A DNA stretch of 64,000 nt from Antedon mediterranea (Eukaryota; Animalia; Echinodermata), in the NCBI RefSeq assembly GCF_964355755.1, contig NC_092679.1:4866201-4930200 (forward strand), given 5' to 3'. The notes below the pieces were generated by a model. That model was not told where the DNA came from. It ran no database searches and saw only the letters and a list, made by a program, of their open reading frames with translations. Position numbers and translations under genes: made by a program. Shown one piece after another: positions 8,835 through 64,000 of the stretch. Each line of letters opens with the position of its first letter. Within the stretch, counting starts at the first letter, position 1.

Positions 8835-9930
8835 CAAGTTGTCTGTGTTATCGGGCGTTCCGCAGGGCTCGATCCTGGGCCCGCTTTTGTTTAATTTATT
8901 TATCAACGATCTTCCTTTAAAATTTAATCATTCCGAGTCTCTTTTATTTGCTGACGATCTGAAATTGTTTAAAGTGATTACCACTCCACAGGATGCTTTT
9001 TCACTTCAGGAGGATCTGGATGGTCTCGTGGAATGGACGGAGAAGTGGGGGATAAAACTTAATGCTAATAAATGCAAATATTTATCAATAACACTTAAAA
9101 AAAGGCCTGTGCTCTTCAATTATAATCTGAGTGGACATGATCTTGAGATGGTTTATGTATGGAAAGATTTAGGTATTTTTATTGATAGTAAATTAAATTT
9201 TTGTTCACATATTAATCATGTGTTGTCAAAAGCTAATAGAATGATGGGCTTAATATGGAGAAATTGTAGGTTTATGAACGACGGCAGGGCACTTTTATCT
9301 TTATACAAATCTATTATACGTCCTCACCTTGAATATTGTTCCGCAATTTTCAATTCAATTTCTCCATGTCAGGCCCGTCGAATCGACACTGTTCAACGGA
9401 AGTTTGTTCGATTCCTGTCTTATAACTGTGTTAATTTTGCCTTTTCCATTGATTCTGTCAGCAATCGTCGAACGATATCTGATATGGTTTTTTTATATCA
9501 TATTTTAAATTCTAAATATGACTGTTCATTAATTTCACTATTTAGTTTAAATGTTCCTGGTCGTACACGAAATAGACATTTATTGCATATTCCTTTTAGC
9601 CGTGTCGACTGTACTAAGAGGGGACTTTTTCATAGACTACCTTATACATTTAATAATCTAAATAGCAATCATATCGATATTTTTAATGATAGACTTGGTT
9701 ATTTTAAGAGGACGATGATGTGTTCACTTCTTGAACAGTCTGCATAACCTGTTTTAATTGAAATTTTTTATGGCATGCCAATCTATGTTTTATATATATA
9801 TATATATATTTTATCTGTATTTTATTGTTAACCGTTTTTGATGTTGTATTGTTTTATGTTTCAAACCTGTTAGTGGCGGTATTTATCGCTGTTGGTTTTG
9901 ATTGAATAAAATAAAATAAATAAAATAAAA
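8835..9930 (+). mobile_element. 5'-truncated LINE (CR1/L2/Jockey group), C-terminal half of reverse transcriptase plus 3' UTR
   Basis: Uninterrupted ORF with SGVPQGSILGPLLF, LLFADDLKLF, KDLGIFID and IRPHLEYC motifs; stop at 9747; (TAAAA)n tail at 9906-9930. Confidence 0.93.
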
Positions 9931-38500: not shown

Positions 38501-41500
38501 AGTTTTGAGTTAGGAGCGAAGGAAGAAATTACGGCTATGAAAGAACAGCACAGTATGTCAAGGATGGATTTCTTTGGAGTATCATACAGTGACCCTTCAA
38601 ATGACCCAGTATCACCAAAGTCGGATGTCAATTCGAATGATCTGGAAGTTACAAGTGACTTTGAATTCGGTATACAAGCTGCAGGTGACAGTAAAGTTAA
38701 GCACAAAGAGGAAAGTAGGAATGATAACAGTAACACTAACAATAGTAATGACGGTTCTAGCAATAGCAGTAACGATGGTAACAGTGGTAGCAATAACGAT
38801 AATAACCATGGTAGCAGTAACCATGGTAGCAGTAACGATAGTAACAGTGGTAGCAGTAACGATAGTAACAGTGGTAGCAGTAACGATGGAAACAGTAATA
38901 ATAATAATAACAACAACAACAATAACAGCAAAGAAAAAGCGTCCAATGAAAACACGAACGACGAAGAGAAAGAAGAAGTCAAACCTCACAAAATTAAAAA
39001 TAAGGATACCAACGTATTTAATTTAAATAATAATGCAAATGAGAATGAAAATACAACAGATGATACCAATGCTAGTGGTGCAACAAAACAGTCAAAGGGT
39101 AAAGACAAACAAAAGAAAGCGAAAAACAAACGAAAACCTGACGAAGGGAAATTGCCAATTCCAAGTAATCTTACATCTTCTAGTCCAGTTGATGATCAAC
39201 CAGCAATTGTTTTGAAACAAGATGTAAAAAAACAGAAGAGAGGTGGATTTGGAAAGTTATTTGGAAGAAAAAAAAATAAACGCCCTCCTCCAATAGGCGA
39301 GAATGAAGAAGTACATCAGTTTACGTCTGAAGAAGCTGTTAGTTCATTTGAGGACACGGCAACCGGTGATGCATCTTCATCGGCGAGTGGCACTGATAGC
39401 ATAGATTCTAGTTCAACTAAAATAGATGGGCAAAACAACGGTGGTAAATCAAATGGTAAAAAGAGAAGAGCTCCGAAACCACCAATAACGGAAGAAACAC
39501 CGACTCCAACAACACCGGAGAAAAATGAAGATTCGCCATCTAAAGACAGACATATCTATTATAAACAACGATCATTGGATATGCCTGATAATGGCCAGCA
39601 AACACCAACAAAAACCTGCACCAAAACGTATACGCCACCAATACAGAAGAAAATATTAATGAAGAAATCATCAGCACCATTGCCACATGAAAGTGACATG
39701 ACCAACTCGCATTCATTACCAAATCTAAGCAATATAAGCTGTTCTTCAGATCAGGGTGTATTTGATATGTCAGCTTCGATCCACAGTAATGAGGATAGAT
39801 CTCTATCTGGCAGTGGATCGAATCTGTCGCAGCTTTCGGTTGAGGTAAAGAAACTTCCGCTTCCAAAAGGAGCGGCACCACCAAAACCAAAACGCCGCCA
39901 ATCTTCAGATATTCATGACGATAATACAGCGGATGTGAGTGAAACTGATGTTATTACAACACCAATGTCGGACGTTTTCAGTGACAATGATTCGCTACTT
40001 TCGGAGATATCACGGTCACTTAGCTCGCCTGAAATGATGAGGTCTGACGTATTTGATAATGATGATACCAAAACAAATGACACAACATATCAAAAGGATA
40101 AGGAAACACCAAAAATAGATAAGAAAAGTGATGTTCCACCTGAGAAGAAGGATAACGATGGAGATACACGCGTTGAAGAAAGGAAGAAACAGACGATAAA
40201 ACATGAAAACGACAAAACCGTTAAGTTAAATACCCCTCAAGTTAATACAAAGATAATTTCTCCAACTATAGAAGAGGAAAGTCAACCCGGACTTCAGACG
40301 TTTTTGCGTACAGGCCAGGCAACTAACGATGCCTTGAAATTTAAACAATCTACTGAAGTGAAAACATTGATGCAGAAGCTGTTAACGAGAGAGGATAAAG
40401 AATTAACTGAAAAGAAATCTGAAACCACTGAAAGCAAGTCCGTGAAAAAGAAGAAAGAAATAAAGTTGCAAAGAACATATGCCTTGGACAATGTAACCAC
40501 ACCATCGCCTTCAGAAACTGAGAAGAAATTAACGTTGGACAAGGACACGCCGCCTTCAAAAATACTTGGTACTTTACGGAGTTCTAGTCAGGAGATTGAT
40601 ATTGAAACTGATGCAGAACCTATTGAAGACAGCAAGCCTATAGTTAGTCCGACTGGTTCGAGGCTGAAGAAAAGGCTTTCTGCATCTCAACTTATATCTT
40701 TAGATGGAGATAGTAAACAACCTCGATCTAAGCCAAAAAGTCGTACGGTATCATTTGATGACACAACGGAAGTAATCCCGGATAACGGCTATATAGAAGA
40801 GCCTGAACGACCCGGAGAGCAAACAGATGAGAAAGTAGAAACAGTTACCAATACTAAAGCACAAGTTACATCTCATGAGCCCATGCAATTTCAAGAAACT
40901 CAGAAACCGAAAACAGATACAAAAGAGGATGATGCCAAACAAAACACTACAACAACTTTCAGATCGAAGAGGCCCGTAAGTCTGTATGATAAATATGCAG
41001 CAACACCACGAATAAAGAAATCAAATAGCAGTGTCGGTGCAGAAATTGTCTCACAAACGACGCAGGAAGAGTCGAAAGAAGAACTTAGTGAACTAGCATC
41101 GTTAAGTGTAGTGAAGTCATACGCCAGTATGTTTGGTCAATCGAAAGCAACATCGAAGTGGAAAAAAACTGCTGGTGTCGGATATTACAAAGATGTACAA
41201 AGCAAACCAGAATCTGAAGATCATGGTTTGAAGCACACTGATGAACTGGCACATGTTAAACTTAAATCTACAAATGTTTTACAGGCATTGATCAAAGAAG
41301 ATATTCCTGACACTAAACCGACTGAAGTCACCTTACCATTATTGAAGCTGGACAAACAAAAACTTGAAACTCTTGAACCAAAGAAAACTCAAGCGACAGC
41401 AGTGAAAAAGACGGAAGTTAAAGAACCAGCCAAGACTACGACACAGCCATCATGGATGGATGCAGTGAAAGCAGCAAAGGCTGCACGTAAAGAAAAGGAG

Positions 41501-43474
41501 AAAGAAGGAAGACCTCAACCAGTTAAATGGAGCGACAGTGACATTCCAGACTTTTCCAGTCTTATCAATATTAGAAAGAACAAAGTACGATCAACCTATG
41601 GCGTACCAGATGAGGAGAATAACACAACAGTTTTCGACTCCACTGTCGACAAAAATACTACTGTACCAGTATCTAATGCAGAGAACGTTGATGTTATGGG
41701 ACTGTTGGCTAGTAGAAAGAAAACCCGCCTTTCTACTTATGAAGAAACAGATGATGTTAAAAATCCGGAACAATTTATAAAACCAAAAAAGTCGTCGATA
41801 ACTGAAGCAAGTCCGTCAAAGATAGATGTCAAAAATGATCATAGCAAAGAAGATAAATCAGAACCTATCGAAGAGGTATGTATTAAGGAAATCGATCAGA
41901 AAATAGAAAGCATAGCCAGTGCATCTAGTAGTGATACCGATAAGGACACTAACAATTGTTCTGATATCGCCTCTAGTCCCGTTTCGGACGACAGTTGTCC
42001 ACAAACAAGACCAACACGCAGCTTGACAAACAGTACTATTTTAACAACAAGTGAAAAGAAAACTATAGATAATGTCAAACAAGAACTCACAGACTCAGCG
42101 AAACCGATGAGAAAACGATCAGATACAACTGGTGATGAAACCCCGTCTGTTTTTGCTGTAATTAAAAACAGACTGAATGAAATAAGCCTTAGTAATAGTG
42201 ATGACAGGGAGGAAAAACTTAGGAAGATTCGTGAACGAACACAATTAATATTAGCTGGATTCAATTCGAAAAAAGATAAAGACCAACAAGAGAAGTCGTC
42301 AGCAGACGACTCCGTCATTAAGAGAGAAACGCTTTCACAAGAACAGAAACAACGGAGAAAGACTATACAATCAGTACCTATGTCTATACAATCTGAACTG
42401 CAGATGAGAGATATAAATGTCAGTAGTACAGCCAGTGAAGATACACTGGAACCTGACAGTGAATCGCAGCAAGAATTTCAATTAAAAGAAATTACTCCGG
42501 AAAAGAAGGTGAATCGTAAGAAAATGTTGAAATCGTATGCTCAGCAAAAAATACTACAAATCGAGACTTCAGGAAATGACGCTTCAGATGAGGATGACTC
42601 TGTTGTTGAAGTTGAAAGGTCAACTAAATCCTCAACACCACAACGATCATCGTCAATTAAGGCGCGCGATAGAAACAGCGCGCGCAGTATAACTTCAAAC
42701 GATTATTATAGAGTTGCTGAATCAAGAAGTAGTGGGTATAACTCTTTCTCTGATATCGGAAGCCCAACTTATACTAGTAGTTCGATAGAATACGAAGAAG
42801 AAAAACGCGATAGTACAATACGAAGAATAAAATCAATGACACACGATGAGCTTCAAAACTTTGTGTTGAAACAACAAAGAGAAATGCAAGAACTGCGAAG
42901 AGAAATTAAAGAATCGGCAAAAAAGAAACCAGAACCGGAAATTTCAAATTCGATTGAAGCATCAAGTTCTAAATCTGAAACGAGGTCTAGGGAATCATCT
43001 GTATCACAGCAACCTCAAATGCCTATGATGTTTATTCCACCGGGAATGTTTATGATGCCGGGAATGTTTCAACAACCAGGAATAGCAAATCAAATGACGC
43101 AACAACAACCAATCATGCCACAACCGCATTCAACCATGATGCATCAACCAACTACCATAACACAACCACACGCAATGCCTACAGGTTCTATGCAACCAGC
43201 AACTGGAATGCCATCGCAACCAGGTCTTGGTATGATGCCGCAGATGGTATCAGGGATGGTACAGCAACCACAGCTTCAGGGAATGGCAGATCCTGCGATG
43301 ATGCCTCTTCTATACCAACAGCAGCAAATGATGCAGTATCTTTTGCAGACCAATCAAACTGGTGGTGTTCCAGCTGCTACTAGTAAACAGACGATTCAGG
43401 GAGTAGGCGGCTATTTACAGAATGAACAGACTGCTACTGAACCCGTTCCTAATACTACATTTAAACACGTTTAG
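29504..43474 (+). CDS. Giant (~2614 aa) AHNAK/AHNAK2/periaxin-family PDZ protein with a long disordered tail
   Basis: Exons 29504-29540 (MGNSCCVGHQRK, phase 1), 35003-35091, 35351-35555 (LGVHIAGSIEKGIFVKHVVEGSIAENSQVIFQ, GC donor) and 35961-43474 (GDQILSATIHFEEISYPDALSILQLSAKYKFELHLQ...). The PDZ matches the periaxin/AHNAK2 signature GIFV...EGDQLLS...FFEN.KYEDAL..LQ...YK. The 7.5-kb exon is fully open. The first exon is the least certain. Confidence 0.85.
32412..33026. repeat. ~204-bp tandem triplication in intron 1 of the PDZ gene
   Basis: Units start aagtttagtttgtgctatc at 32412, 32616 and 32821 and are nearly identical. Confidence 0.95.
38720..38930 (+). repeat. Coding low-complexity Asn/Ser/Gly/Asp tract
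   Basis: Repeats of agtaacgatagtaacagtggtagc and (AAT/AAC)n encoding NDSNSGSS...NNNNNNNNNN. Confidence 0.9.
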
Positions 43475-45430: not shown

Positions 45431-46856
45431 CGTTATGTCATTGACATTTTGTTCTCGTTTTTCGTCCTTGATAGATCAATATTAGTTTTTTAATATCATC
45501 CATAAAATGATAATGGATATTAAAATTGTAACTAGATTATACACATCACATTTTATAGTCCTACTAGTTATAATGAAATCTTGTTTTATAATGGTTTTAG
45601 AGTAATTATAAGTGCGCATTCTTGCGTTTTGTCTGAATATTTAAACGCATACGTCGTGTCATCATCATAATTTTCCAGTATAAAGCGATAATATATTTTG
45701 AAATGACAACGATACTAAATACTGTATTACTGGTTTGCATATTACAGTTTACCCTTAGACACAATAGCAGAATTAATTAATTTCACAGTAGACCTACCTG
45801 CGTCTGTGCAGGTGTACAGGGACCTTTTTGTGACGAGCGAAGAAGCATCAAATGATGCGAACATGTTATGTTCATATAGGCCTAGAACATAACGATAAAC
45901 ATGCATTTGAGAAGTAAGTTAATATACTCCGTCTCTGAATGACACAACATACGTTCAATGCTATGTCTGCTGCTGACAGACGGTATGTAAGAATTTAATG
46001 ACTTTTTGGAACATAGGCCAAATATTTCAGTTGTTTGATATAATGTAAACGAACGTTAAAACATAAATTGAATATATCACATACATATGTATGTTTCACA
46101 TTCAAGACGTATTTTCTTCCTACATCAACTAAATTATAAAAAAAAACACTCATATTTTGTCACTGATAAAATATACTTTGAATTTGTTCACTGAGCGGCG
46201 ACAAAAATATGACGTATAATAACCTAATGCATTTTGAATTTTAAAATGTCATTCTAAAGTGTAACCTATTAAGATTTTTGAAATGCTATAGCAGTATTAT
46301 TCATAATTGCACATTAGGAATTCGCTGTTTCTGGTTGCACACATAAAACACCTTCGATCCTCCTTAGAGCATTAATCTTTTCGTATTGATGGAGGAAGCG
46401 TAAAAGATTATACATCTTGCCTAATGCAATTTCACCATTTAAGCATCGTAATTTTAAAACACATTTGTTGGGTTTTTCACCTTGGAATTTTTAAAAAAAC
46501 ATTGCCAGTACTGTATTGTTACTTCATAATCGATTCTTTACTGTACCGTATTCTCTATCGTTAAACATCTTCAATTTCGTAGAGATATGAATAGGCCTAT
46601 GCAAATTTATTTTCTCCATAGTAACACTCTACCTTAGTAATTATATTATTATATATACATGATGATTTTAATTTCATATTGTCATATATTACTCTTTGGA
46701 GGTCATACGGTCATGTTTGTATGGCTCTTCAATTTAAATTTAATTAATTATTTATTCATACAATTTGTTCTTACTGGTTATAGGCCTAATAACCAGACTA
46801 TAATTACTATATGCAATAATCTTTAGAAATTGATTATTCAATCAAGCAAATAGACA

Positions 46857-48130
46857 TGTTACGCGTCTCCTCTTAATTAACACGTCTAGATATAAACACG
46901 TACGTATTTTACTAACATATAATGTTACGCGTGTTCCCTTAATTAACGCGTCTAGATATAAACACGTACGTATTTTACTAACATGTCATGTTACCCGTGT
47001 CCCCTTAATTAACGCATCTAGATATAAACACGTACGTATTTTACTAAGATATAATGTTACGCGTGTCCCCTTAATTAACGCGTATAGATATAAACACGTA
47101 CGTATTTTACTAACATGTCATGTTACGCGTGTCCCCTTAATTAACGCGTCTAGATATAAACACGTACGTATTTTACTAACATATAATGTTACGCGTGTCC
47201 CCTTAATTAACGCGTCTAGATATAAACACGTACGTATTTTACTAACATGTCATGTTACTCGTGTCCCCTCAATTAACGCGTGTAGATATAAACACGTACG
47301 TATTTTACTAGCATGTCATGTTACGCGTGTCACCTTAAATAACGCGTCTAGATATAAACACGTACATATTTTACTAACATGTCATGTTACTCGTGTCCCC
47401 TCAATTAACGCGTGTAGATATAAAAACGTACGTATTTTACTAGCATGTCATGTTACGCGTGTCCCCTTAATTAACGCGTCTAGATATAAACACGTACGTA
47501 TTTTACTAACATAATGTTACGCGTGTCCCCTTAATTAACGCGTCTAGATATAAACACGTACGTATTTTACTAACATGTCATGTTACTCGTGTCCCCTCAA
47601 TTAACGCGTGTAGATATAAACATGTACGTATTTTACTAGCATGTCATGTTACGCGTGTGACCTTAAATAACGCGTCTAGATATAAACACGTACATATTTT
47701 ACTAACATGTCATGTTACCCGTGTCCCCTTAATTAACGCGTCTAGATATAAACACGTACGTGTTTTACTAGCATGTCATGTTACGCGTGTCACCTTAAAT
47801 AACGCGTCTAGATATAATAAACACGTACGTATTTTACTAAAATGTAATGTTACGCGTGTCTCCTTAATTAACGCGTCTAGATATAAAAACGTACGTATTT
47901 TATTAACATTTCACATGTTACGCGTGGCCCTATAATTAACGCGTCTATAGATATAAACAAATACGTATTTACTAACATGACATGTTACGCGTGTCCCCTT
48001 AATTAACGCGTCTATAGATATAAACAAATACGTATTTTACTAACATTTCACGTGTTACGCGTTTCCCTATAATTTTAACAAAAATACGTACGCATTTTTC
48101 TAACATGTTACATATTACGCGTGTACCCTT
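46857..48130. repeat. 66-bp palindrome-rich satellite, ~19 units
   Basis: Unit tgttACGCGTgtcccCTTAATTAACGCGTCTAGAtataaacACGTACGTattttactaACATGTca; period of 66 measured at 46861, 46927 and 46993. Confidence 0.95.
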
Positions 48131-49135
48131 AAACGAGTCTAAATGTAACCGCGTAGGCCTACATATTTTATAACGTGTCACATGGTGTGTGTGTGTGTGT
48201 CTCTCTTTGATTTACACGTCTAGTTATATAATGAGTGCGTTCGTTTATCAAGATTTTATAAGCATTATACGTCGTTTGAATTTGTTTTAGTCGTTCAATT
48301 TATAAAATTGCCTCTTTAAATGTTTATTGCACTGCAAGTCATTCTCCGTAGAAACATTGATGATCACGTGGGGGAAATTATGCATTAATAAGTGTAAGCC
48401 GTTATGCATAACGTCATTTTAAGACAAGTACTCCACAAACACGATGCGGAGAGAGACGTCGCATAGTTGATTGGTGAGTTAGATGGTTATAGCTGTTTCT
48501 GTTTTATATTTTAATTTTTTATATATGAACAAATTGTACATACGCGTATTGTATATTTTTGCTATTTATGTACATCATATTCTTATGAATAAGTAAATGT
48601 TGATGTTATTATTGGTGTCCAGAAAATAAATTTCTCTATGAGATCAATATCATTTTTACTGATAGTAATATTTTATTACTTAATTATAATAAAAAACTTT
48701 ATATCGAAAGTTGTTAAACGTTGATATTTTAATATTTATTCGTGTAAATTTAGTGTTATTCAACGTTTTTAATTGTATTGAATAAGCAGTAAGTGAAATA
48801 TATTATTCAACGGATTAACTTCTCACCTGATGTAGAATGTAGAATAATAACCTATGCTCTGCATTGTCCGTCTTACTACCCTATGCCATTTTATAGCAAA
48901 CATTATCTTGAAATGTTTACCAATATCCGAATATGTATGCATAAAGTCGTGGATGTATAATATGCGGGCATTCCAGTTATCAATCAATCATCATCCTAAT
49001 CAAGGAAGACCTATGGACTGTAACAAATGTGTATAGTCAATATTAAATTGTGAATGTATATTGATATTTATCAAATGTTTACTTCAAGTGATATTTATTT
49101 AATGTTAGGTCTAGCTGTTAGAAAAAGTGAAGACG

Positions 49136-50630
49136 ATGGCAGCCGCACTCGGTGCAGTCAAATCGTTGTCATCAATCACACCAGATGAGGGCAACCAGCT
49201 GTTAGAGTTCGACTCAGCGATTGTCATGATACAGTCACGGCTGCCTGTGCTACTAGCATTACTTGCTATACTACGAGATACGTTTGGTAAATATTAAATC
49301 GAGAATATACAATACTGACACTATACCACTACCTTGGTGCATCCTGGTCACTTAGTTAGCAAAACTAGGCTATAATGGAAAGTGGACTTAGTTTAGGAAC
49401 TTTGTAATCTGTGAGATTGAGCGTTGTCTAAAGCTCTGTCTACAGGCTATCAAACTGTATGTGACAACAAAATGTGATGTGGCCATATGGACATGATGTC
49501 ATATCACTACCATATTTGGGCATATCACTATACCATATTTAGGCACACTTTAAAAAAAAAAGAGTTTACAAGCGAGAGAATTCGGATGATTTATCGCGTA
49601 CTCATATTACACGTCCTTGCGTTGCGCCAAATCGCGTCGTATTAGTTTAGTTTAGTTTAAATGGGTAATGATAACGTCATTGCGTTGCGCAATGGGAACC
49701 AAGCTTTTATGAAAGAGTGACTGTATTTCTTTGTTTTTCATAGGTGACTCTGGTACCAAATGCTACCCACCCGAATACGTCAGTAACACAGAGAGTGTGA
49801 AGTATATCAACGCATACTGTACTTACAGAGAGAACGACGATCTCATCGGCTATCACGAATTCGTACCCTTCTCGTTCACTTTACAGGCTGTTTTAATACA
49901 GATTCCTATACTTATATGGATCGCTTGTGGCGGTAGAAAAATATCAATGGTGGCTATGTGGTTTGCTAAATGTTGTAGAGAGATTTGTTCAGAAGCCGAA
50001 TTCCCGATCAAGTCTGACACCGTCGCCGATGAAGACGACGGCGGGGCAAATAGCAATGATCGTAGAAACTGGCCTAAAGTACATTCAATCATGCAATGTT
50101 ACATAAACGAATGGTCCGTGTCTCGTACATATGTTTTAGCGTATTTTTTATGTAAGGTCCTACTTTGCTGCGCGACGTGCGCGTCTCTGACTTACCACTA
50201 CCTGTTACTACGAGTCACCATTGAGCCTTATTTTCTTAACAACGAATTTTCTTGTGACGTAGAAGACTTGAATACAACTATAAACTGTATCAAACCGTAC
50301 GAAATATTCAACCAGATTTTGATTATCATTGATCTTGTTCTGTGCCTTGCCCTACCACTGGCCGTGATCATTTTAAGAGAATCTCGGTTGCTTTTAACCA
50401 TGTTCTGCGGATGGCAAAAGAGCATCTCAGATTTTATACCTTTCTTAGAGATTCCAAAAGGAGCATTAAGATTTAATAATACAAATATACTGGCAATGTA
50501 CTACAAAGAAAATATTGGCTTAGACGAGAAATACGTTCAGAAGATATTAGTACCGTGGAAAACGTCAGTGGCAAAGACTAATGAAGTTTGTTTGAACGAA
50601 CTTTGTACTACTGAGAAAACGTGTTTTTGA
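49136..50630 (+). CDS. Pannexin/innexin-superfamily large-pore channel, paralog A (~345 aa)
   Basis: Coding exons 49136-49286 (MAAALGAVK...LEFDSAIVMIQSRLPVLLALLAILRDTFG) and 49744-50630. Four TMs; EL1 C-YPP...YINAY-C; HEFVPF...IPILIW (compare PANX1 HKFFPY...LPPLFW); EL2 EFSC...CIKPYEIFNQIL; no LRR domain. Confidence 0.88.
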
Positions 50631-50864
50631 TAATCACCATGCCATTGGCTGGTCCCGGCTCAAGTTTTAACAACTGGTCAACTGTACCTCAATAGTACTT
50701 TAAGTAAAACGCAATAATATTCCACCTGACGTGCATTACCGCAATCACATAAAATGAAAAAGAAGCACTATAATAACATATGACGTCCATTGGCGGTTTA
50801 AATATCGACATGACCGCGCTGAGCATAATATTTACGGATGAATTTTGATAGTTGTGTATGTTAA

Positions 50865-51383
50865 AGATGTATTGTCCCTTGAAACACAAAAAACGAAGGT
50901 CAAGATATTCTAAATTTAAATTGGCCATATCAAAGTAATACTAAAGTTATTCACTTTAAGTCGAAAATTCGAGCCAAAAAACAAACATTTTACGTAATTA
51001 ACAGCTAAATTAATTTGATTACACTGTCTGGAAAATCGTCGCAAGCGAAAGTAAACAAAGATTTCAAACCATGAGTATACATTATGCATGATGCTAATTA
51101 GGATTGTTTACAACTCGTCACGGTTGAGAAGGTGTTTTCACACAGATCGCGAGGAAGTTTTATGATTATGCATACAGAGTAGCTAAATAAGCGCGTTGCA
51201 TTATGAGATACGTTTTGACTGGAAGTCAAATTATTTTTTGAACCAAAAAACGTCTGTATTTTAGTTAGATGATTTTTTTTTCGACTAATTTTTGGTGAAA
51301 GTTAATAACTATTATGATACTTCAAAATGACCCACTTTTTTTTCGATTTTTTTTTTTTAATTTGACAAAGGGACAATACATCT
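50865..51383. mobile_element. Kolobok-like MITE
   Basis: Perfect TIR agatgtattgtccctt / aagggacaatacatct with TTAA on both sides. Confidence 0.8.
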
Positions 51384-52370
51384 TTAATATAACCTCATCT
51401 AATAATGTGTGGTATTTGTATATAGTATTTCGATTAAGCAACACATGTATTCGATACCTATTTAATGAAGACATGTTTTGCAAATACATTTTCATTCTAA
51501 TAAACCAGTATATGTGAATATTTATTGGGTTGAGACTGCCTCAGGTTAGTCCAGTGTGATCTAGACGTATTTACAGGGCCTTTATATCAAGTTCTAGTTG
51601 TATTAAGTAATCCGAATAAATATAAAGCACAAAATTAATCAGATGACGTTTTAATGTGTTATCATTCAGTGTGAAATTGGTTTAAATAGTACTGTTATCT
51701 CGGCCATCCAGGGTAGGCCTGGAGTACAACAATTGATGTGCGACACAATACACAATACGGTAGTAATAAATACAATACTTTAAAAATAACAGATTCGTTC
51801 GTTTCAATTACGATCATGAATACATTTGGCATAATATTGTAGCGTCTCACATTCTGTGCGCGCTAGGGCTTAACTTAAAAATAATTATATATTCTAATAG
51901 AAATCCAAAGAAATACCACTGAATATATGTAACAATTAAATTGATATAAATAGATCTATACATTTTGTTTAGATACCGTATCGGCATTTTTGACTGTAAA
52001 ATAGAAAAATATCATGAAATGCACTTTTTCAATATGTTCACACGGTGGACTGTTTTGAGGAAGTAAAATAAATGCTTATTCTGCCACCGTATTTAGCAGT
52101 TGCTGCGACTAAAAATTGTTTCGTGACATTTTACAACAGAAAATAATATAATATTGTATTTCACGGTCTCCTCTCAAAGTTAATTGAGTGTTTTACGGTA
52201 AGTTTTAAGCCATCTATACAGGATAGTGTATTGTGCCTATTTATATATATTTTGTTAGAGGTTCGAAAGAAAGCTCTATTGATCAAGAACTCATTTTGTT
52301 AGTATAGGCAAACACTTTGTATAGTTTTTAAAATTGATATTTGTTATTATTATATTTTATAATCTTTAAT

Positions 52371-52950
52371 TAGTATAGGCAAACACTTTGTATAGTTTTT
52401 AGTATAGGCAAACACTTTGTATAGTTTTTAGTATAGGCAAACACTTTGTATAGTTTTTAGTATAGGCAAACACTTTGTATAGTTTTTAGTATAGGCAAAC
52501 ACTTTGTATAGTTTTTAGTATAGGCAAACACTTTGTATAGTTTTTAGTATAGGCAAACACTTTGTATAGTTTTTAGTATAGGCAAACACTTTGTATAGTT
52601 TTTAGTATAGGCAAACACTTTGTATAGTTTTTAGTATAGGCAAACACTTTGTATAGTTTTTAGTATAGGCAAACACTTTGTATAGTTTTTAGTATAGGCA
52701 AACACTTTGTATAGTTTTTAGTATAGGCAAACACTTTGTATAGCTTTTAGTATAGGCAAACACTTTGTATAGTTTTTAGTATAGGCAAACACTTTGTATA
52801 GTTTTTAGTATAGGCAAACACTTTGTATAGTTTTTAGTATAGGCAAACACTTTGTATAGTTTTTAGTATAGGCAAACACTTTGTATAGTTTTTAGTATAG
52901 GCAAACACTTTGTATAGTTTTTAGTATAGGCAAACACTTTGTATAGTTTT
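52371..52950. repeat. 29-bp minisatellite, 20 near-perfect copies
   Basis: (tagtataggcaaacactttgtatagtttt)n; one isolated copy at 52300-52328. Confidence 0.97.
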
Positions 52951-53122
52951 TAAAATTGATTTTTTTTATATCTTTACTTTGTAACCTATATTAATACTTT
53001 TTTAAAAATCCAATTGAAAATGTTTAGTAACTGAATCAAATATATTATTTGTTTATTATTATGTTGCTAATTATGGATTTTTTTTTACAAACTTAGACCT
53101 AATTGCATTTCAAATACGGACG

Positions 53123-54437
53123 ATGTCAGACACAATTGCTGAAATCACATCGTTGTCTTCGCTTATTGCATATGAAGGACACCGACTTCTACGGTTTGAC
53201 TCGGTGATTCTTATGTTACAAACACGGCTGCCTTTACTACTGGCTGCATTGGCTTTGATACGTGACACGTTTGGTAAATATAACTAAATATCTATAACAT
53301 TCTCGCACTACCGTATACTGCATGCTTATTGTTTTTCAGTTCTTCGTGTACATAATTCTATGAAAATGATTTTATTTGTGTCCCTTTCTTTTCTTAGGTG
53401 AAATGTCGATTACGAATTGTTACGCACCCGATTTCACTGGAACAGAGAATAAAGCCTTTGTTAACGCATATTGCAAGTACAGGGAAAACCTAGGGCTACT
53501 CGGATACCACGAATTCATACCGTTCACCTTCACCCTCCAAACTGTTTTGATACAGGTTCCCGTACTTACCTGGATTTTTCTTGGTGGTAGAAAAATGTCA
53601 ATGGTGGCTGAGTGGTTTTCCAAATGCTGTAAAGAAGTTTGCTCAAAAGAAAAAAAATGCCCAGCATCGACAAGTAAAAATGACAAGCCTACTCGAGAAC
53701 CTCATTCAATAATGCAAAGTTACATAAAAAGATGGTCTAAATCATGCACGTATGTTATAACTTATTTCGTCTATAAGTTTTTCCTTTGCATTGTAACAGG
53801 TTTGTCTCTGTATTATCATTGTCATATGGTCAAAGTCACAATTGAGCCAAATTTCTTCAACCACGAATTTGAATGTTACGTAGAAACCGTAAATAAGACG
53901 GTTACCTGCGTCAAACCGTACGAAATATTCAACCAGATATTAATTATCATTAACATTGTGATATGCCTTGCAATACCACTTTTTCTAATAATTGTTCATG
54001 AATGTAATGTGCTTTTTAAAATGTCCCGTGAAAATCAGAACATTTCGAATTTCTTACCTTGCCTTGCCTTGCCAAATAAACCAAAATTGTTTAATAATAC
54101 GAAAATACTCTTAATGTACTACGAAAGAAATATCGATCTGGATGAGAAATACGTTCAGAAGATAATAGGGTATAAACAAATTAATGGGCAGGAAGAAACT
54201 AATGGGCAGGAAGGAACTACTGGGCAGGACGAAACGAAAGGGCAGGACGAAACGAAAGGGCAGGACGAAACGAAAGGACAGGACGAAACTAAAGGACAGG
54301 ACGAAACTAATGGACAGGACGAAACGAAAGGGCAGGACGAAACTAATGGGCAGGACGAAATGACAGGGCAGGACGGAACTAATGGGCAGAAAGAAAATGA
54401 ACGTCTACTTTCTTTTTGTTGTACGATCAATACATAA
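53123..54437 (+). CDS. Pannexin/innexin-superfamily channel, paralog B (~396 aa) with C-terminal hexapeptide repeats
   Basis: Coding exons 53123-53273 (MSDTIAEI...LQTRLPLLLAALALIRDTFG) and 53398-54437; same four-Cys pattern and motifs as paralog A; (GQDET[K/N])n tail. Confidence 0.88.
54185..54390 (+). repeat. 18-bp coding tandem repeat, ~11 copies, GQDET(K/N)
   Basis: (gggcaggacgaaacgaaa / ggacaggacgaaactaat)n, in frame in paralog B. Confidence 0.95.
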
Positions 54438-54864
54438 CCCAACTACCTTGTGGTTTCCGCTGGTCAAACACTATTTTTTGTTGTATAATCTTACTCATTT
54501 TAACTTGGATCTTGATTGTAATTGACAAAACTCCAGCATAATCATGAAGCTAAGTTTACTGTAAAACATGGGTAGTTGCTAAAAGCAAGCGACATCCGTC
54601 TTGTAATTAGTGTTGAATGTTAGAATGATTTCTATTACCGTATTTATCCTGATTCATTATAAGTATAAGCAGTTGTAGTGATTATTTACACACGTCATTC
54701 GGTTTTAGAATTAGATTAAGTGTATTACATAGAATTAGACAAATATATAAACTTTTCAAACAGGACAGGCGTGAATAAGAACATTTTTACTTGACGTCTC
54801 TGAGGCAGAAATCATGAATAATTCATGAGATTAATTAGGCAAAAGTTAGAAAATGATAGAGGCA

Positions 54865-54907
54865 CTATAATAATAATAATAATAACAATAATAATAATAA
54901 CACTAAC

Positions 54908-54963
<56 letters not shown>

Positions 54964-55835
54964 GATTTTTATAGCGCACATACCACTCCAGAGTGCTCAA
55001 GGCGCATTTAAAAATAAAAAGAAATAAATCATACAAATTCCTGACAAATAAAATGCAATTTCTTTGGAGGGTCCCCATCCGTTGTCGTTCTGTCGCGGTC
55101 CCGGACCCCTACCTAGGTGACCAAACAAAGGAGCAGGATACACATTTGCCTTGCCACAGACGACCGGGTGCTCAGAGACAACAACCAAGACAGAGGCACC
55201 CCAAAGATAATGCTGGCCAGGAAAAGGTATACAAAACAATTCTAAGCCTAAAAAACTTTAAGAAACCTCATGATTTCCATATGCCTTAATGAATAAATGT
55301 GTTTTTAATAATTGTTTAAAAGTATCAGTTTTGCAAAATCTTATAGAGCTCGGTAGAGCATTCCACAGACGAGGAGCAGTAACGGAGAATGCTCTGTCAC
55401 CCCATGAGTGGTGAGACTTAGGCTGATGTAGAAGCAGCGAGTCACTAGAACGCAGATTACGTCCGGGAACATACAGCCTAAGCATGTCAGAAATATATTC
55501 AGGAGCCATGCCATTTATAGACTTAAAAACAAAGAGTAATATTTTAAAAACAATGCGGTACCTAACAGGGAGCCAATGAAATATTTCCAAAGTATTTGAT
55601 ATGTGTCCATAGCTGTATTTTGAATCAGTTGGAGCCTGTGGAGTTGTTTTTGTGGTAGCCCGTATAGCAAAGAGTTTCCCATATCCAGTCGTGAAGTGAC
55701 AAAAGCATGAACAAGTTGTTAGCTGCTGTCTCATTTATAAACTTGCGGATCCTTCGAATGTTTCGCAAGTGAAAAGACGACGCAGAAATAGTTTTTGAGA
55801 TATGAGAAATCATAGTCATACCCACATCCATTTCA
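54865..55835 (-). mobile_element. L2/Crack-type LINE 3' fragment, frameshifted
   Basis: Minus-strand ORFs with [44 protein letters not shown] and FKQLLKTHLF; L2-type 3' end gcgccttgag...gcgctataaaaat followed by an (ATT)n tail (54865-54962). Confidence 0.9.
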
Positions 55836-57657
55836 ACCCCAACCCCCTATTATAATAAATAGCTTCCCGTTTATTTTAGAACTGTAGTAGGTGTGTTATA
55901 AAACAAATAATGAATATGTTGTATTCGTTGAATGGAGAGAATAATTTAACTCGGCTCAAATGACATATTCTCACCATTTAAGTCATAAACATTCATTGTT
56001 TGTATAATAAGTTTAAATATTGCCGTGAATCAAATATATATTTCTTTGAATTATTCATTGCTGACATTATGTTATATTATTGACGATGTCACACAATGTA
56101 ATCATTTTTCCATTTTATACTACTATTTTAAGCCAAGAGGTTGGATCAGATATAGATCTGCTTGTATAGCCTAGAGAATATTGGTGAAGGGTGTTTAAGG
56201 ATGAGATGGTTTTGATTTGGATTATTGTAAGGGATTAACGGAGATTTCTTGATTGTAGGCTGTTATTAAATTGTTGCAAAAAATACCGTAATGGTTTAAT
56301 TTGTTTGGTTTTTATTGCACGTGTTACGTTTAAGCCTATACATCATTAGAATGTTTTCACCGTGCATATTGTGTGGAGCCACCTTGAAATACCTTGAATA
56401 AATCCCTTTTATGCCTAAACATGGCACGCTGCACAGTTGATGCCAATAGTAATAACCGCCACTTTCGGTTAAAAAAATCGTACTGAAAATGACGGGCGCA
56501 CGATGAAGATACGATTAAGATAACTTTACGAATTATTGCGACAGGTAAGACGTTTGCTACGATATATTACGACTGTACTTTGATTTCATTACGGCTTCAA
56601 TACGATTTTGTCAAGAAGCTTGATCATCTGTGAATGTTAACAACCATTGCCAAATCGTTTCTGGACCGAATTGTTCAAAAACTTTTTCGAAAACATTGAC
56701 GTAAACAAACTTTAATTGGAAATAATGTGAATTCAATAGGTGTGCGTTTTCCCCATGGCCTTATATGTACTTATTCATCGACAGCATTATGACTTGCCGT
56801 AGTGATTATCAACATTGTAATATTTCAAAACCAGCTTCCAATGTTTGAACAATTGAGTAATGCATACGGATTAGGTATAAAGACCATGGAGTATTTTAGG
56901 TTTAGTAATAATTCACCCGATAATTCACATACATTGTTGATCTTTCCGAATTCATTTACATTTGTTATTTGGGATTCTCGTCGTCATAGGACTGTGATTG
57001 TGCTCGTTAGGCTACTCTCTGTTATACATAATTCATTTATAGAATGATGGAATGAATAACGATATAAAAACGTTTATTGCTGGTGATTTCAATCATTTTG
57101 TTATAATAAAGTGGCAAGATCTAAATGTATGGAAATAAATTAGACCCTAATGGGTGGTCATATAGATTCACTAGACATGTTACAACTAACTGGGGAGAGG
57201 GGGAGAAAGAGAAAATAATAATCTTCTTCTATTTGGACCAATGACCCTGCAGGGATTGGTATCTAATCTTTTTTCACCAAGCTAATTAACTTCTCTCCAC
57301 TTGTTGATATGATATCGAAAGCTACGTAAAATTCCAGTGTTGTATAATTCAACATAACACGTAGGCCAGTAACGTTATCTCGATCGGAGACATTCAAGTG
57401 GAATTTGTTTGCGATGAACTAGTCTGTTTCCACAAAATACAGAGAATTCCCTGATTAAAAAGACCTGGATGATATTCAAAGTTTAATAATTAATTTTATG
57501 CATTATAATTGTCCTTGTGTTATCTATGTCTATGTTTATATCTATGTTTAGTTCGACATAAACGACATTCTTTCCAATACTCTAGTTTATAGTGGTTCCT
57601 AAGGAAAGTGAGAGCAGACATTTGTTATAGTCTTTAGGCCTACTAGTTACTAGCACG

Positions 57658-59954
57658 ATGGTCAGCGGCGCATTTGAAACAATTACCGCATTCTCATCAA
57701 TTACTCCAGTTTCAGGAGAGCATCTTTTAGAGTTTGATTCAGCCATTCTTAGGCTGCAGACACGACTGCCTCTACTTCTAGCGTTATTGGCTTTACTACG
57801 GACTACATTTGGTAAATATGACAATTACATTATATCAGGGCTATAATTATGCTATGTTACCTGTTACATACGTTTTTAGTTCATTGTTTTTAAAATGGAG
57901 AAATGTTTTTCCTGACCAAATGCAGACCTCCAGACTCTCCCGATTTCATGTCATCTGCTGCTCTATCCCGCTAAAATACAATTTCTTCCGATATTTTGGT
58001 TAAACAGAGAAAATATCTCAATAATGTATAAACATTAATTTATAATTTTGCTCATTTTTCGAAAAAAAAATGCCTGTACTATCCTCTAGATAGATAAGAG
58101 ATTTGAAAAAAATACTATAGGTGGTCTACCGGTCCATAAGATGGTTATAATAAAATTCATGCGTTGATTACGAAATACAGAGATTTTTCGCATTTTGGCA
58201 CGCCATGACATACCTATGTTTATAGATGCAAATATCTAACATGAGGAGTCGTGATTAATTCTGAGTGTTTGATATACATACATCATAAGTAGGGTTAAAC
58301 AGTTTACATTCTTCACTGGATTTCATGACAAAAGTTCATAAAAAAGTTATCCGTTATTTTTCCAGTACTCTTTTAAGCTTGGTTCACACTATATGACGCA
58401 ATGTAAGGAGGGAGACGCACCGTATCGGCGCCGCGCGCAACAGTGATAATTAAACTTCTCGTAAGATGAGAATGCGAAATTGACAGAAGATAATTCTATT
58501 ACGCTCTGCGTCGTCCAGGCGTTAAACGTTTTGCTGCGCCATTTTGGATGTTTTTTAAGTGAGTGACATTAATAAAAGGCACAATAAACATTGCGAATTC
58601 AGCCCGGAGATTGAGATTTCATACATAACTTCAGATTTTTTATTATTTTTTTTTTATTATTGATCATCATACGTGTATAGTTATAATACATAATATAATA
58701 CTCTAACCAAATAGATATTGATGTGAACCAAATAGATATTGATGTGAACCAAATAGATATTGATGTGAACCAAATAGATATTGATGTGAACCAACTAGAT
58801 ATTGATGTGAACCAAATAGATATTGATATGAACCAAATAGATATTGATATGAACCATATAGATATTGTTGTGACCAAATAGATATTGATGTGACCAAATA
58901 GATATTGATGTGATGCAAATATCTAACATGAGGAGTCGTGATTAATTCTGAGTGTTTGATATACATACGTCATAAGTAGGGTTAAACAGTTTACATTCTT
59001 CACTGGATTTCATGACGTACAAAAAACAACAAACATCATATTATTACAAGACTTCCTTTATATCACTTAGGTGGCACGGGCATATCATGTTACGCACCTG
59101 ATCTTAACGCCGAGAGTGTAAACTTTATCAATGGATATTGCCGGTACAACGAAAACCAAGGTGCATTAGCTGGATTTCACGAATTCATACCATTTACATT
59201 CATCCTTCAAACTATTTTACTGCAAGTCCCCGCACATGTCTGGATTTCCATTGGTGGCAAAAAAGTGTCAATGGTGGCTAAGTGTTTCGTCAAATGCTGT
59301 AAAGATAGCTGCTCAGAAGCTAAATGCCTCCCAAATCCTGACAGAAATTGGAATGGAGATAGTTGCTCTTTAAAAGATCTATCACACCCTACCACCAGCG
59401 CTGAAGTACAAGATTGTAGTAACTGGCCTAAATTCCATGAGGTAATGCAATATTATATAGACCAGTGGTCTAAATCGTCGAAATATTTAAACCGTTATCG
59501 CAACTGTAAATTAGGACTTTATGCTGTGACAATAATTATAATGGTTTGTTATTTTACTGTTACATTTGTGACAGTCGGATCAGATTTTTTTAACTACGAA
59601 TTCGAATGCTATGTAGAAGCGTTAAATTTTACGTCTATCTGCGTTAAACCTTATGAAATATTTAACGAGATTTTACTTATTACTAATATAGGAATATGTC
59701 TTTTATTACCACTGGTAATTATGATTGCTCGAGATATTTATTTGTGTGTCACAATCAAGTTTGGAAAGAAGCAAAAAAATATCACAGATTTTATACCTTG
59801 CATACGAATTCCAAACGAATCTAAAAGTCCTAATGATACAACTATGATTGTGATCTACTACCAAGAAAAGATTGGTCTAGACGAGAAATACGTTCAGAAG
59901 GTTTTAGTACCGTATAACGATAAGATAAAAACAGGCTTAAGCTCTATAACCTAA
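57658..59954 (+). CDS. Pannexin/innexin-superfamily channel, paralog C (~345 aa)
   Basis: Coding exons 57658-57811 (MVSGAFET...LQTRLPLLLALLALLRTTFG) and 59071-59954 (GTGISCYAPDLNAESVNFINGYC...FHEFIPF...EFECYV...CVKPYEIFNEIL...LDEKYVQK). Confidence 0.88.
58705..58911. repeat. 21-bp minisatellite, ~10 copies, within the duplicated segment
   Basis: (aaccaaatagatattgatgtg)n. Confidence 0.95.
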
Positions 59955-60394
59955 AGTCTACAATATAATAATATAATAATTATATAGTTGGAAAGTTTTT
60001 CCGTGGCGATTTAAAGTTTTGCAGTGACATTTTCAAACTCATTAAAAAAAGTTATCCGTTATTTTTCCAGTACTCTTTTAAGCTTGGTTCACACTATATG
60101 ACGCAATGTAAGGAGGGAGACGCACCGTATCGGCGCCGCGCGCAACAGTGATAATTAAACTTCTCGTAAGATGAGAATGCGAAATTGATAGAAGATAATT
60201 CTATTACGCTCTGCGTCGTCCAGGCGTTAAACGTTTTGCTGTGCCATTTTGGATGTTTTTTAAGTGAGTGACATTAATAAAAGGCACAATAAACATTGCG
60301 AATTCAGCCCGGAGATTGAGATTTCATACATACTTCAGATTTTTTATTATTGATCATCATACGTGTATAGTTATAATACATAATATAATACTCT

Positions 60395-60873
60395 AACCAA
60401 ATAGATATTGATGTGAACCAAATAGATATTGATGTGAACCAAATAGATATTGATGTGAACCAAATAGATATTGATGTGAACCAAATAGATATTGATGTGA
60501 ACCAAATAGATATTGATGTGAACCAAATAGATATTGATGTGAACCAAATAGATATTAATGTGAACCAAATAGATATTGATGTGAACCAAATAGATATCGA
60601 TGTGAACCAAATAGATATTGATATGAACCAAATAGATATTGATGTGAACCAAATAGATATTAATGTGAACCAAATAGATATTGATGTGAACCAAATAGAT
60701 ATTGATGTGAACCAAATAGATATTGATCTGAACCAAATAGATATTGATATGAACCAAATAGATATTGATGTGAACCAAATAGATATTGATCTGAACCAAA
60801 TAGATATTGATATGAACCATATAGATATTGATGTGAACCAAATAGATATTGATGTGAACCAAATAGATATTGA
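60395..60873. repeat. 21-bp minisatellite, ~23 copies
   Basis: (aaccaaatagatattgatgtg)n, preceded by the same ~350-bp unique segment as the array at 58705. Confidence 0.95.
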
Positions 60874-61964
60874 TTGGTTGTCATTTTTTGACGCTAAAAA
60901 TGTAGTAAGCATTTTATACTTATTTTACACCAACAGATGGTTCAAATATCTGTCCCCTACTGTATATAAAATATAGAATTGGTTCAGAGGATGTTTTTCT
61001 TTCGCACCTGCCTTTCTTGTATTTTGACTCCAAATTTGTTAACTGACTTTATTCTGAATATCAAACTTTAAAATTAGGACTTATATAAGAACTTTCAGGA
61101 GGAAAAGCACATAAAAACAAATAAATAAATCCTTTAAATTGATGTTTTTACAGACGTGTTTCTTTGTATACTGAGTGTAACTCCTCCCATGCTCAATGTT
61201 TTTGTTTCTATGTAGCGCCAAAAGAGCAACAATAATAGTACAAGTATAAAAACAGAAAGAAAACGAAACAAAAAACTTATTATCATGATTTTAAATTAAA
61301 ATTTATTTGCGAGTGTTTATTTCTTCGTACTAGCATGATTATACTATTATTATTACAATTTTAATTTTACATTGTTCCATCCACACTTTAGATGGACTCC
61401 ACAGAGTTTTCAGCACTCTATATAATTTTGCTCTTTTGACGTTCCATAGAAACAAAAACATTGAACATGATGTAGGCGGCTATGTACAGATATGTTCGGA
61501 CCCCCAAAATGAAGACAGGAGCATGTTCATGTACATTGATTATTAACAACTTAGGGAGTTTGAAAGGAAGATGTGATTGGATATTGAGGGAGAGCGTCAT
61601 TTCGACGATCGATCATTCTCTACTCTCTATTTAGAGAATGACGGATTAATGAATAAATAATATGATCAAAACTATGGAGCACCAATCATTGTTTTGTCTA
61701 GCAACCTAAAGAAATTGCCTGTCGTACATGTTTACAACACTAAATGTTTAAAATTTCATTTCTTTCGCTCTGACACTACAGATTTCAAAATAAGTTTTTT
61801 TCTGTGGAAAGTCCTGCGTTGCAGTAAAAAGCCGATGGGATGGTAATTGTCTTTATCATTCAATATCCCGTATTTTTTGTGTAATTATATTTTTCTAATT
61901 AATAAAAGATTTTTTATTTTGTGTATGTACAGTACTTGTATCTGAATATTTGTTACTTGCAGCC

Positions 61965-64000
61965 AAATATACCATCATTTTGGGTATATGGAACACAATG
62001 CATTATATATGATAATTATTATATAATGAGCAATGAGGCCGTTTTTTTTTTCTTTTTTTTTTTTTTTTTATTCATACTCATCCAACAGCGAGTAACTCGC
62101 CAATTACAGGATGGATAAACTATTTAATAATTTATCGTGCTTATAAACTAAGTCTCATTTGAGGCTTAGGGAGTGGAGTTGAAAGAGTCATGAGTTACAA
62201 CCCTGCACTAGGTCAGGATTGAACCCGGGACCTTGGGATTGGAAGGCAAGCACGTTAACCACCAAGCTACAGCTCCACTTCCTATATTAAAGCATTGTGT
62301 TCATGTGGTATCATTTTGGGTATATGGAACACAATGCATTATATATGATGAATAAACCACTGTAATATGAGGCCGTTTTCCTATGTTAAAGCATTGTGTT
62401 CCTGCTGGGGTTATCATTTTGGGTATATGGAACACAATGCATTATAATGATAAATAAACCATTGTAATAAGCAATGAGGCCGTTTTCCTATGTTAAAGCA
62501 TTGTGTTCCTGGGGTATCATTTTGGGTATATGAAACACAATGCATTATATATGATGAATAAACCACTATAAGCAATGAGGCCGTTTTCCTATGTTAAAGC
62601 ATTGTGTTCCTGTGGTATCATTTTGGGTATATGGAACACAATGCATTATATATGATAAATAAACCACTGTAATAAGCAATGAGGCCGTTTTCTATGTTAA
62701 AGCATTGTGTTCATGTGGTATCATTTTGGGTATATGGAACACAATGCATTATATATAATGAATAAACCACTGTAATAAGCAATGAGGCCGTTTTCCTATG
62801 TTAAAGTATTGTGTTCCTGGGGTATCATTTTGGGTATATGAAACACAATGTATTATATATGATGAATAAACCACTGTAATAAGCAATGAGGCCGTTTTCT
62901 ATGTTAAAGCATTGTGTTCATGTGGTATCATTTTGGGTATATGGAACACAATGCATTATATATAATGAATAAACCACTGTAATAAGCAATGAGGCCGTTT
63001 TCCTATGTTAAAGCATTGTGTTCCTGGGGTATCATTTTGGGTATATGGAACACAATGCATTATAGATAATGAATTAACCACTGTAATGAGGCCGTTTTCC
63101 TATGTTAAAGCATTGTGTTCCTGGGGTATCATTTTGGGTATATGGAACACAATGCATTATAGATAATGAATTAACCACTGTAATAAGCAATGAGGCCGTT
63201 TTTCTATGTTAAAGCATTGTGTTCATGTGGTATCATTTTGAGTATGTAACACAATGCATTTATACAGTAATGAATAAACCACTTCAATAAGCAATGAGGC
63301 CGTTTTCCTATGTTAAAGCATTGTGTTCCTGTGGTATCATTTTGGGTATATGGAACACAATGCATTATAGGCTAATGAATAAACCACTGTAATGAGGCCG
63401 TTTTCCTATGTTAAAGCATTGTGTTCCTGGGGTATCATTTTGGGTATATGGAACACAATGCATTATATATAATGAATAAACCACTGTAATATGAGGCCGT
63501 TTTCCTATGTTAAAGCATTGTGTTCCTGGGGTATCATTTTGGGTATATGGAACACAATGCATTATATTTGATGAATAAACCACTGTAATAAGCAATGAGG
63601 CCGTTTTCTATGTTAAAGCATTGTGTTCATGTGGTATCATTTTGGGTATATGGAACACAATGCATTATATATAATGAATAAACCACTGTAATAAGCAATG
63701 AGGCCGTTTTCCTATGTTAAAGCATTGTGTTCATGTGGTATCATTTTGAGTATGTAACACAATGCATTTATACAGTAATGAATAAACCACTTCAATAAGC
63801 AAAGAGGCCGTTTTCCTATGTTAAAGCATTGTGTTCCTGTGGTATCATTTTGGGTATATGGAACACAATGCATTATAGGCTAATGAAAAAACCACTGTAA
63901 TATGAGGCCGTTTTCCTATGTTAAAGCATTGTGTTCCTGGGGTATCATTTTGGGTATATGGAACACAATGCATTATATAATGAATAAACCACTGTAATAT
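61965..64000. repeat. ~100-104-bp satellite array continuing beyond the window
   Basis: Unit gaggccgttttcctatgttaaagcattgtgttcctggggtatcattttgggtatatggaacacaatgcattatat...aaaccactgtaataagcaat with an internal inverted repeat gcattgtgttcc/ggaacacaatgc; at least 17 units. Confidence 0.97.
62042..62279 (-). mobile_element. tRNA-derived SINE with poly(A) tail inserted in the first satellite unit
   Basis: Minus strand: TAGCTTGGTGG A-box, GGTTCAATCC B-box, body and AATAAA followed by poly(A); it splits the satellite motif gaggccgtttt|cctat. Confidence 0.8.

Follow-up and report, generated by a model that had tools for sequence, protein, structure and literature searches.

Three tandem pannexin-family genes in a crinoid echinoderm, Antedon mediterranea

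Gene structure and annotation of the cluster

A 64,000-nucleotide stretch of the Antedon mediterranea genome (contig NC_092679.1 of RefSeq assembly GCF_964355755.1, positions 4,866,201 to 4,930,200; hereafter the window) carries three neighboring genes, here called g1, g2 and g3, that encode predicted large-pore channel proteins. We are highly confident that these are real crinoid pannexin-family genes; as such they add a new branch to a known family, in a phylum from which it had been reported absent. All three lie on the same (+) strand, and each comprises two coding exons separated by a phase-1 GT..AG intron that splits a Gly codon just past the first transmembrane segment (TM1). The introns share the donor context TTTG/gtaaat (3/3) and measure 457 bp in g1, 124 bp in g2 and 1259 bp in g3. 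The spliced proteins (345, 396 and 345 aa, respectively) contain no internal stops, show four hydrophobic segments apiece (Kyte-Doolittle peaks), place two Cys in each of the two extracellular loops (EL1 and EL2), and carry the motifs HEF.PF, P...W and C.KPYEIFN. Pairwise identities are 46-53%, and since BLASTP E values range from 1e-81 to 1e-117, this similarity is not due to chance. No fourth copy was found by tblastn within the window. An earlier note, made from the letters of this DNA, had described the three same-strand paralogs, their intron position and phase, and their segments, cysteines, motifs and intact reading frames, all of which hold in all three genes and at the exact coordinates. 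The main features are listed below, with residue columns compared across eight crinoid proteins, namely those of g1-g3 and five from Anneissia japonica.

49136..49286, + strand: g1 coding exon A, N-terminal helix and TM1, phase-1 end inside Gly51
49287..49743, + strand: g1 intron, 457 bp, GT..AG, containing a host high-copy repeat (~49385-49618)
49744..50630, + strand: g1 coding exon B, EL1 (C57, C76), TM2-TM4, EL2 (C221, C232), C-terminal bundle and 26-aa tail
49788..49793, + strand: g1 Thr66-Glu67, at the PANX1 Trp74-Arg75 positions as counted from the second EL1 Cys
50271..50279, + strand: g1 EL2 N-glycosylation sequon N227-T-T, in the same column in 8/8 crinoid proteins
53123..53273, + strand: g2 coding exon A
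53398..54437, + strand: g2 coding exon B, with EL2 sequon N216-K-T at 53892-53900
54186..54392, + strand: g2 acidic tail, ~12 six-residue GQ(D/E)ETx units (11 GQD/GQE and one GQK)
57658..57811, + strand: g3 coding exon A
59071..59954, + strand: g3 coding exon B, with EL2 sequon N237-F-T at 59625-59633

Spliced g1 is identical, letter for letter, to RefSeq XP_071962682.1 ("uncharacterized protein"), placed on a 25.0-Mb sequence. The record already bears a precomputed match to the Pfam Innexin model (PF00876), and the earlier suggestion that the cluster is probably unannotated therefore fails for this gene. For g2 and g3, sequence searches of protein collections returned no database record, and none of the three exon-B frames, taken from the first Met onward, had an exact match in the protein collection (0/3). 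The g2 tail, with 22 D/E among 89 aa, carries GQDETK-like acidic repeats that do not occur in the other seven crinoid proteins, and is a candidate regulatory or pore-blocking tail.

The predicted g1 junction (49286/49744) is matched, with a one-base ambiguity, by a 505-base contig from one sequencing run (X1) that joins 49111-49285 straight to 49743-50041. Depth in X1 was nil over the unique part of the g1 intron and upstream, whereas three DNA runs from one sample (X2, X3 and X5) read through. Coverage of g2 in X1 was limited to low depth at 53692-54159, with g2 exon A and all of g3 uncovered, which is no evidence of silence. No listed run that holds the locus is recorded as RNA. Among the listed g1 coding variants, six of eight are silent (the table holds 16 further rows), and the variant T228A leaves the sequon intact. 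An in-frame stop (49112-49114) lies ahead of the g1 ATG. Candidate acceptor AGs stand 5-41 bases 5' of each ATG (window 49109, 53097 and ~57638), and the X1 contig carries 31 extra bases that could not be placed on the window stretch; hence, each gene likely has a non-coding first exon. The first whole exon-B residue of g3 aligned to PANX1 residue 61, and intron 1 of PANX1 presumably splits the Gly61 codon, although we found no source for this; on that assumption, the two introns would fall at most one codon apart.

Assignment to the pannexin family

Profile searches, comparisons with solved structures and fold rankings all support the earlier proposal of a pannexin-like channel family. On PF00876, g1 scored 37.5 bits against a cut-off of 25 (exon B by itself: E 5.6e-9, 36.1 bits), and the cut-off was passed by five of the six full-length crinoid database proteins. 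None of these six matched the LRRC8 pore model (PF12534) or any leucine-rich repeat (LRR) model. In each of g1-g3, a stop codon follows the pore domain, with no LRRs after it. A hidden Markov model (HMM) built from seven chordate pannexins gave 60.6 bits for spliced g2 and 28.8 bits for spliced g3. The best solved-structure match was frog Panx1 for g2 exon B (E 1.1e-6) and Panx1 for g3 (E 1.2e-4, residues 1-273). When a five-sequence crinoid profile was compared with PDB sequences (E<=10), the 34 matches comprised 31 pannexins, one innexin-6, two unrelated receptors and no LRRC8. The best pannexin reached E 2e-12 over profile positions 23-313, and innexin-6 E 2.7e-4 over positions 32-112 (TM1-TM2) only.

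The fold points in the same direction. An AlphaFold2 (AF2) model of g1 was obtained from a 21-row alignment that included pannexins (predicted local distance difference test score, pLDDT, 71). In a Foldseek search with this model, listed ranks 1-49 were all pannexins and the first LRRC8 stood at rank 50. Against 48,161 representative chains (VIA), five pannexin entries gave Z scores of 15.7-17.6 (root-mean-square deviation 5.0-6.7, 238-282 aligned), compared with 13.8 for LRRC8, 12.2 for connexin-50 and 12.0 for innexin-6, the only innexin structure in the comparison set. The Atlas comparison, which used its own g1 model, agreed with the pannexin ranking and placed LRRC8 at TM-scores of 0.65-0.68; once PF00876 and PF12534 were set aside, the Atlas search returned connexin clusters alone (0.76, below lead level). 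The g1 residues C57, C76, C221 and C232 align with the pannexin cysteines, and the 2+2 pattern is present in 8/8 crinoid proteins. A three-copy complex prediction of g1 returned no verdict (score 0.00), and a single-sequence fold of g3 exon B reached a pLDDT of 34 and was set aside.

Relatives in crinoids and other deuterostomes

The five Anneissia japonica relatives are 53-64% identical to g1. Three of them (LOC117107753, -755 and -757) lie on a sequence of one size (1,648,852 bp) and likely form a cluster, while LOC117111691 and LOC117124794 lie on sequences of 1.62 Mb and 8.9 kb, respectively. A HMMER search of 1.84 billion representatives with the crinoid profile (E<=0.001) gave eight hits, none of them a named protostome innexin: two from Anneissia, one from the hemichordate Ptychodera flava (XP_070559489.1), one unnamed protein, a bird and a fish pannexin-1, a fish pannexin-3, and a lancelet pannexin. 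The order of these hits tracks deuterostome kinship. The Ptychodera protein, itself unnamed and located on a 47-Mb sequence, scored 68 bits on the crinoid profile, and its best solved match is Panx1 (E 2.9e-6). The family is present in two crinoid genomes and one hemichordate. The eight hits include no named protein from sea stars, urchins, brittle stars or sea cucumbers, but the same search left most pannexins and every innexin undetected. A loss of pannexins in these other echinoderm classes is nonetheless suggested by the pattern of hits, because Ptychodera is more distantly related to crinoids than those classes are. A word-based search with a broad alignment returned two proteins and missed even its own query member g1, and is uninformative on absence. 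Relatives made up 0/459 and 0/56 of the pattern matches in metagenome and viral contigs, respectively. An unnamed pannexin-like family from sequencing-run assemblies (P0009/P0016) scored 45.8 bits on the crinoid profile.

Identity between g1 and chordate pannexins is 20-24%. The phylogeny drew on 16 of 36 sequences, fetched proteins and window genes together, after removal of short isoforms and of bird and fish entries that were nearly duplicates. The eight crinoid proteins formed one clade (support 95/99), within which Antedon g1-g3 formed a clade of their own (96/99; overall support 96-98%). In a crinoid-only tree, forcing g1 together with its two nearest Anneissia genes was rejected by the approximately unbiased (AU) test (p 0.012). 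Hence, the triplication in Antedon likely postdates the split from Anneissia, unless long branches or gene conversion draw g2 and g3 toward g1. The earlier note's interpretation therefore stands as to the family and its local, lineage-specific expansion, and falls as to the annotation status of g1; the Innexin Pfam check that it had proposed came out positive for g1 and without a hit for g2 and g3 exon B scanned alone.

Predicted channel properties

An N-x-T sequon occupies one column between the two EL2 cysteines in 8/8 crinoid proteins; its middle residue varies among five amino acids, the background being 24 sequons in 2807 residues. Panx1 is glycosylated in EL2 (PMC3808535), and extracellular glycosylation hinders docking and junction formation (PMC8769644). 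On these grounds, we consider a non-junctional channel the probable product of the genes. The subunits would ring a central pore as a pannexin-like oligomer, a heptamer by analogy to Panx1 (PMC7108861), and, as in PANX1, a glycan carried by the short hairpin of EL2 would keep two rings from docking.

At the PANX1 Trp74/Arg75 positions, 8/8 crinoid proteins have T/S/A followed by Glu. In human PANX1, Trp74Ala and Arg75Glu each lead to a loss of anion selectivity (PMC7108861), which is why the extracellular mouth of the crinoid channel is predicted not to be anion-selective; a ring of Glu would replace the Trp74/Arg75 filter and leave a wider opening. The pore would pass ions and small metabolites, such as ATP, outward. 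None of the eight crinoid tails contains a C-terminal DxxD caspase site, and cleavage gating of the PANX1 type is for this reason unlikely. A K-C/S-C-x3-C motif is conserved at the inner end of TM2, and we would guess at a lipidation or redox site. The ancestral role may be retained by g1; the faster-evolving g2 and g3 might tune or specialize the channel, and heteromers of g1-g3 are possible.

Taken together, we consider it probable that g1-g3 are intact genes of the pannexin branch, likely inherited from a deuterostome ancestor and likely tandem-tripled in the Antedon line, whose products are predicted to be glycosylated, non-junctional large-pore channels. Several points weigh against this reading. 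The label "pannexin branch" reflects similarity and fold ranking, because the tree is unrooted, includes no innexin or LRRC8 outgroup, and joins the crinoids to Ptychodera weakly (75/83, with long branches). The exon-B sequences of g2 and g3 miss PF00876 (exons were scanned separately), and the g2 and g3 branches are long (0.6-1.05). The Ptychodera protein has no Pfam hit and carries its sequon in EL1, with none in EL2. Selection on the paralogs (see below) amounts to moderate constraint only. The run X1 was guessed to be RNA, coming from a study separate from the DNA runs, and the g1 junction is seen in a single contig. Moreover, the crinoid EL2 hairpin is eight residues shorter than that of PANX1, with the sequon in a different column, and seven sequon-bearing innexins still form gap junctions (PMC8769644).

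Alternative explanations

The last of these points bears on the alternative that g1-g3 belong to the same family but dock as true gap junctions and are the junction proteins so far missing from the crinoid. Electrical coupling occurs between echinoderm cells with no junction gene known for it, and no competing connexin exists in A. mediterranea as far as PMC6391747 found; three clustered paralogs also recall the innexin clusters of ctenophores (PMC9949713). Nonetheless, we regard this alternative as unlikely. Although some sequon-bearing innexins form junctions anyway, the EL2 sequon has been retained in every crinoid protein, and both fold and sequence are nearer to non-junctional pannexins than to innexin-6. 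Furthermore, the crinoid genes would not explain echinoderm coupling, because this was measured in a sea star, and none of the named HMMER hits comes from sea stars, urchins, brittle stars or sea cucumbers.

A second alternative, that g1 alone works, with g2 and g3 as recent, silent or decaying duplicates, is improbable. It would fit the long branches of g2 and g3, the lack of database records for them in our searches, the repeat-expanded g2 tail, and the dN/dS value of 0.45 between g2 and g3, the highest of the three comparisons (0.33, 0.34 and 0.45 at dS 0.9-1.2, Nei-Gojobori). However, all of these values are well below 1, showing purifying selection on the predicted coding sequences of g1-g3, and frames, splice sites, the four loop cysteines and the sequon are intact at a distance at which a dead gene would be expected to show stops or frameshifts.

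We give very little credence to the idea that the genes encode LRRC8-type subunits that lost their LRR domain: LRRC8 is the second-best fold, but it lies 2-4 Z units below the pannexins, is absent from the 34 PDB sequence matches, and its PF12534 domain was found in none of the crinoid proteins scanned. Symbiont contamination, or horizontal transfer from a chordate, is the least credible explanation and is largely refuted: although all earlier echinoderm innexin hits have been argued to be contaminants (bioRxiv 10.1101/2023.01.05.522624) and crinoids are reported to host copepods, the genes contain introns and lie on a host sequence of 25 Mb, a high-copy repeat of the host sits within the g1 intron, relatives occur in the assembly of a second crinoid, variants are present in a run from a second study, g1 is only 20-24% identical to chordate pannexins, and the closest non-crinoid hit is from a hemichordate.

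Genomic surroundings

Upstream of the cluster lie ordinary animal genes:

19679-25444, + strand: EF1-gamma gene
35312-43474, + strand: AHNAK/periaxin-type PDZ gene with a 7.5-kb exon

In humans, EEF1G and AHNAK also stand side by side in this order, which would make this gene pair as old as the deuterostomes. Repeats are also present in the window. Two copies, 95% identical, of a 584-bp element containing a 21-bp tandem array lie in the g3 intron (58341-58922) and just 3' of g3 (60046-60614), and a ~100-bp repeat, read from the sequence, flanks the intron copy (near 58226-58330 and 58914-59017). A reverse-transcriptase frame (PF00078) and other likely transposon remnants were found at 8785-9747, 16903-18200 and 55258-55734, with satellites near 46800-48150, 52370-52950, 60389-60880 and 62280-64000.

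Implications for pannexin evolution

The presence of any innexin, pannexin or connexin in echinoderms and hemichordates is disputed in the literature. Both A. mediterranea (one SRA experiment) and P. flava are recorded as pannexin- and connexin-negative in PMC6391747, which predicts that a third protein family forms the junctions. Innexins from echinoderm transcriptomes were claimed in PMC8769644, along with only fragments from hemichordates; eight supplements to it gave 0 hits for Anneissia, Antedon or crinoid. A 2023 preprint attributed all earlier echinoderm hits to contamination and detected no such gene in 35 echinoderm genomes (bioRxiv 10.1101/2023.01.05.522624), and PMC9949713 states that none are known from echinoderm or hemichordate genomes. 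The portions available of bioRxiv 10.64898/2026.06.13.731801, PMC13482580 and PMC3928549 added nothing on echinoderm pannexins. We found no report of these crinoid genes in the literature covered, which leaves out most subscription journals. Others may have noticed g1 earlier, its PF00876 match being visible in public annotation.

The weight of the finding lies in the species itself, a crinoid echinoderm named in print as pannexin-negative. The occurrence of intron-bearing genomic genes in an acorn worm as well as in two crinoids moves the loss away from the ambulacrarian root; at most, it concerns the remaining classes of echinoderms. Tentatively, we lean toward a wider account in which pannexins are deuterostome-wide rather than a chordate family: one would have been present in the ambulacrarian ancestor, kept by crinoids and acorn worms, expanded twice independently in crinoids and lost in the other four echinoderm classes, and the crinoid channel, with its small/Glu filter, would be naturally non-anion-selective. 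The crinoid genes also allow a direct test of whether a glycosylated, non-docking pannexin predates chordates, as the connexin-bottleneck idea needs. On the boldest reading, if true, the crinoid channel still docks and would be the first protein of the pannexin type to form gap junctions in a deuterostome lacking connexins. A. mediterranea is reportedly an emerging developmental model.

Comparison with known channel families

LRRC8 proteins, which form the volume-regulated anion channel (VRAC; PF12534), have a related pore fold (Z 13.8), whereas the crinoid genes have no LRR domain and no PF12534 match. Among innexins, INX-6 of C. elegans (PDB 5h1q) shares the superfamily, the Pfam model and the 2+2 loop cysteines with the crinoid proteins, and lineage-specific expansions and clusters are common in protostome innexins according to PMC9949713. 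INX-6 differs in matching over TM1-TM2 only (E 2.7e-4), in its lower fold score (Z 12.0) and in forming octameric gap junctions. Closer to the crinoids, the lancelet pannexin KAI8496276.1 and the Ptychodera protein XP_070559489.1 are of similar length and have four loop cysteines and a short EL2 hairpin; yet they are only 21-24% identical, have their sequons in EL1, and were each found as one copy.

Compared with vertebrate pannexins, the EL2 hairpin between the cysteines is 10 rather than 18 residues long, the tails of g1 and g3 are short (15-26 aa) with no C-terminal DxxD, and the genes have two coding exons and stand in tandem rather than dispersed. The crinoid proteins have small/Glu residues in place of Trp74/Arg75, the acidic residue there recalling PANX2 (title of PDB 8gtt); with neither the PANX1 filter nor a DxxD site, they are not filed in the PANX1 subfamily. 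Nonetheless, they share with PANX1/2/3 (PF00876; PDB 6vd7, 9oqp and 8gyq) the four-TM fold, the 2+2 loop cysteines, H-x-F-x-P where TM2 begins, EF-x-C in EL2, and a C-terminal bundle of helices that ends with an E-N-I-like motif, as well as an EL2 sequon as in PANX1. Vertebrate pannexins are the best matches of the crinoid proteins in both sequence and fold, despite an identity of only ~20%.

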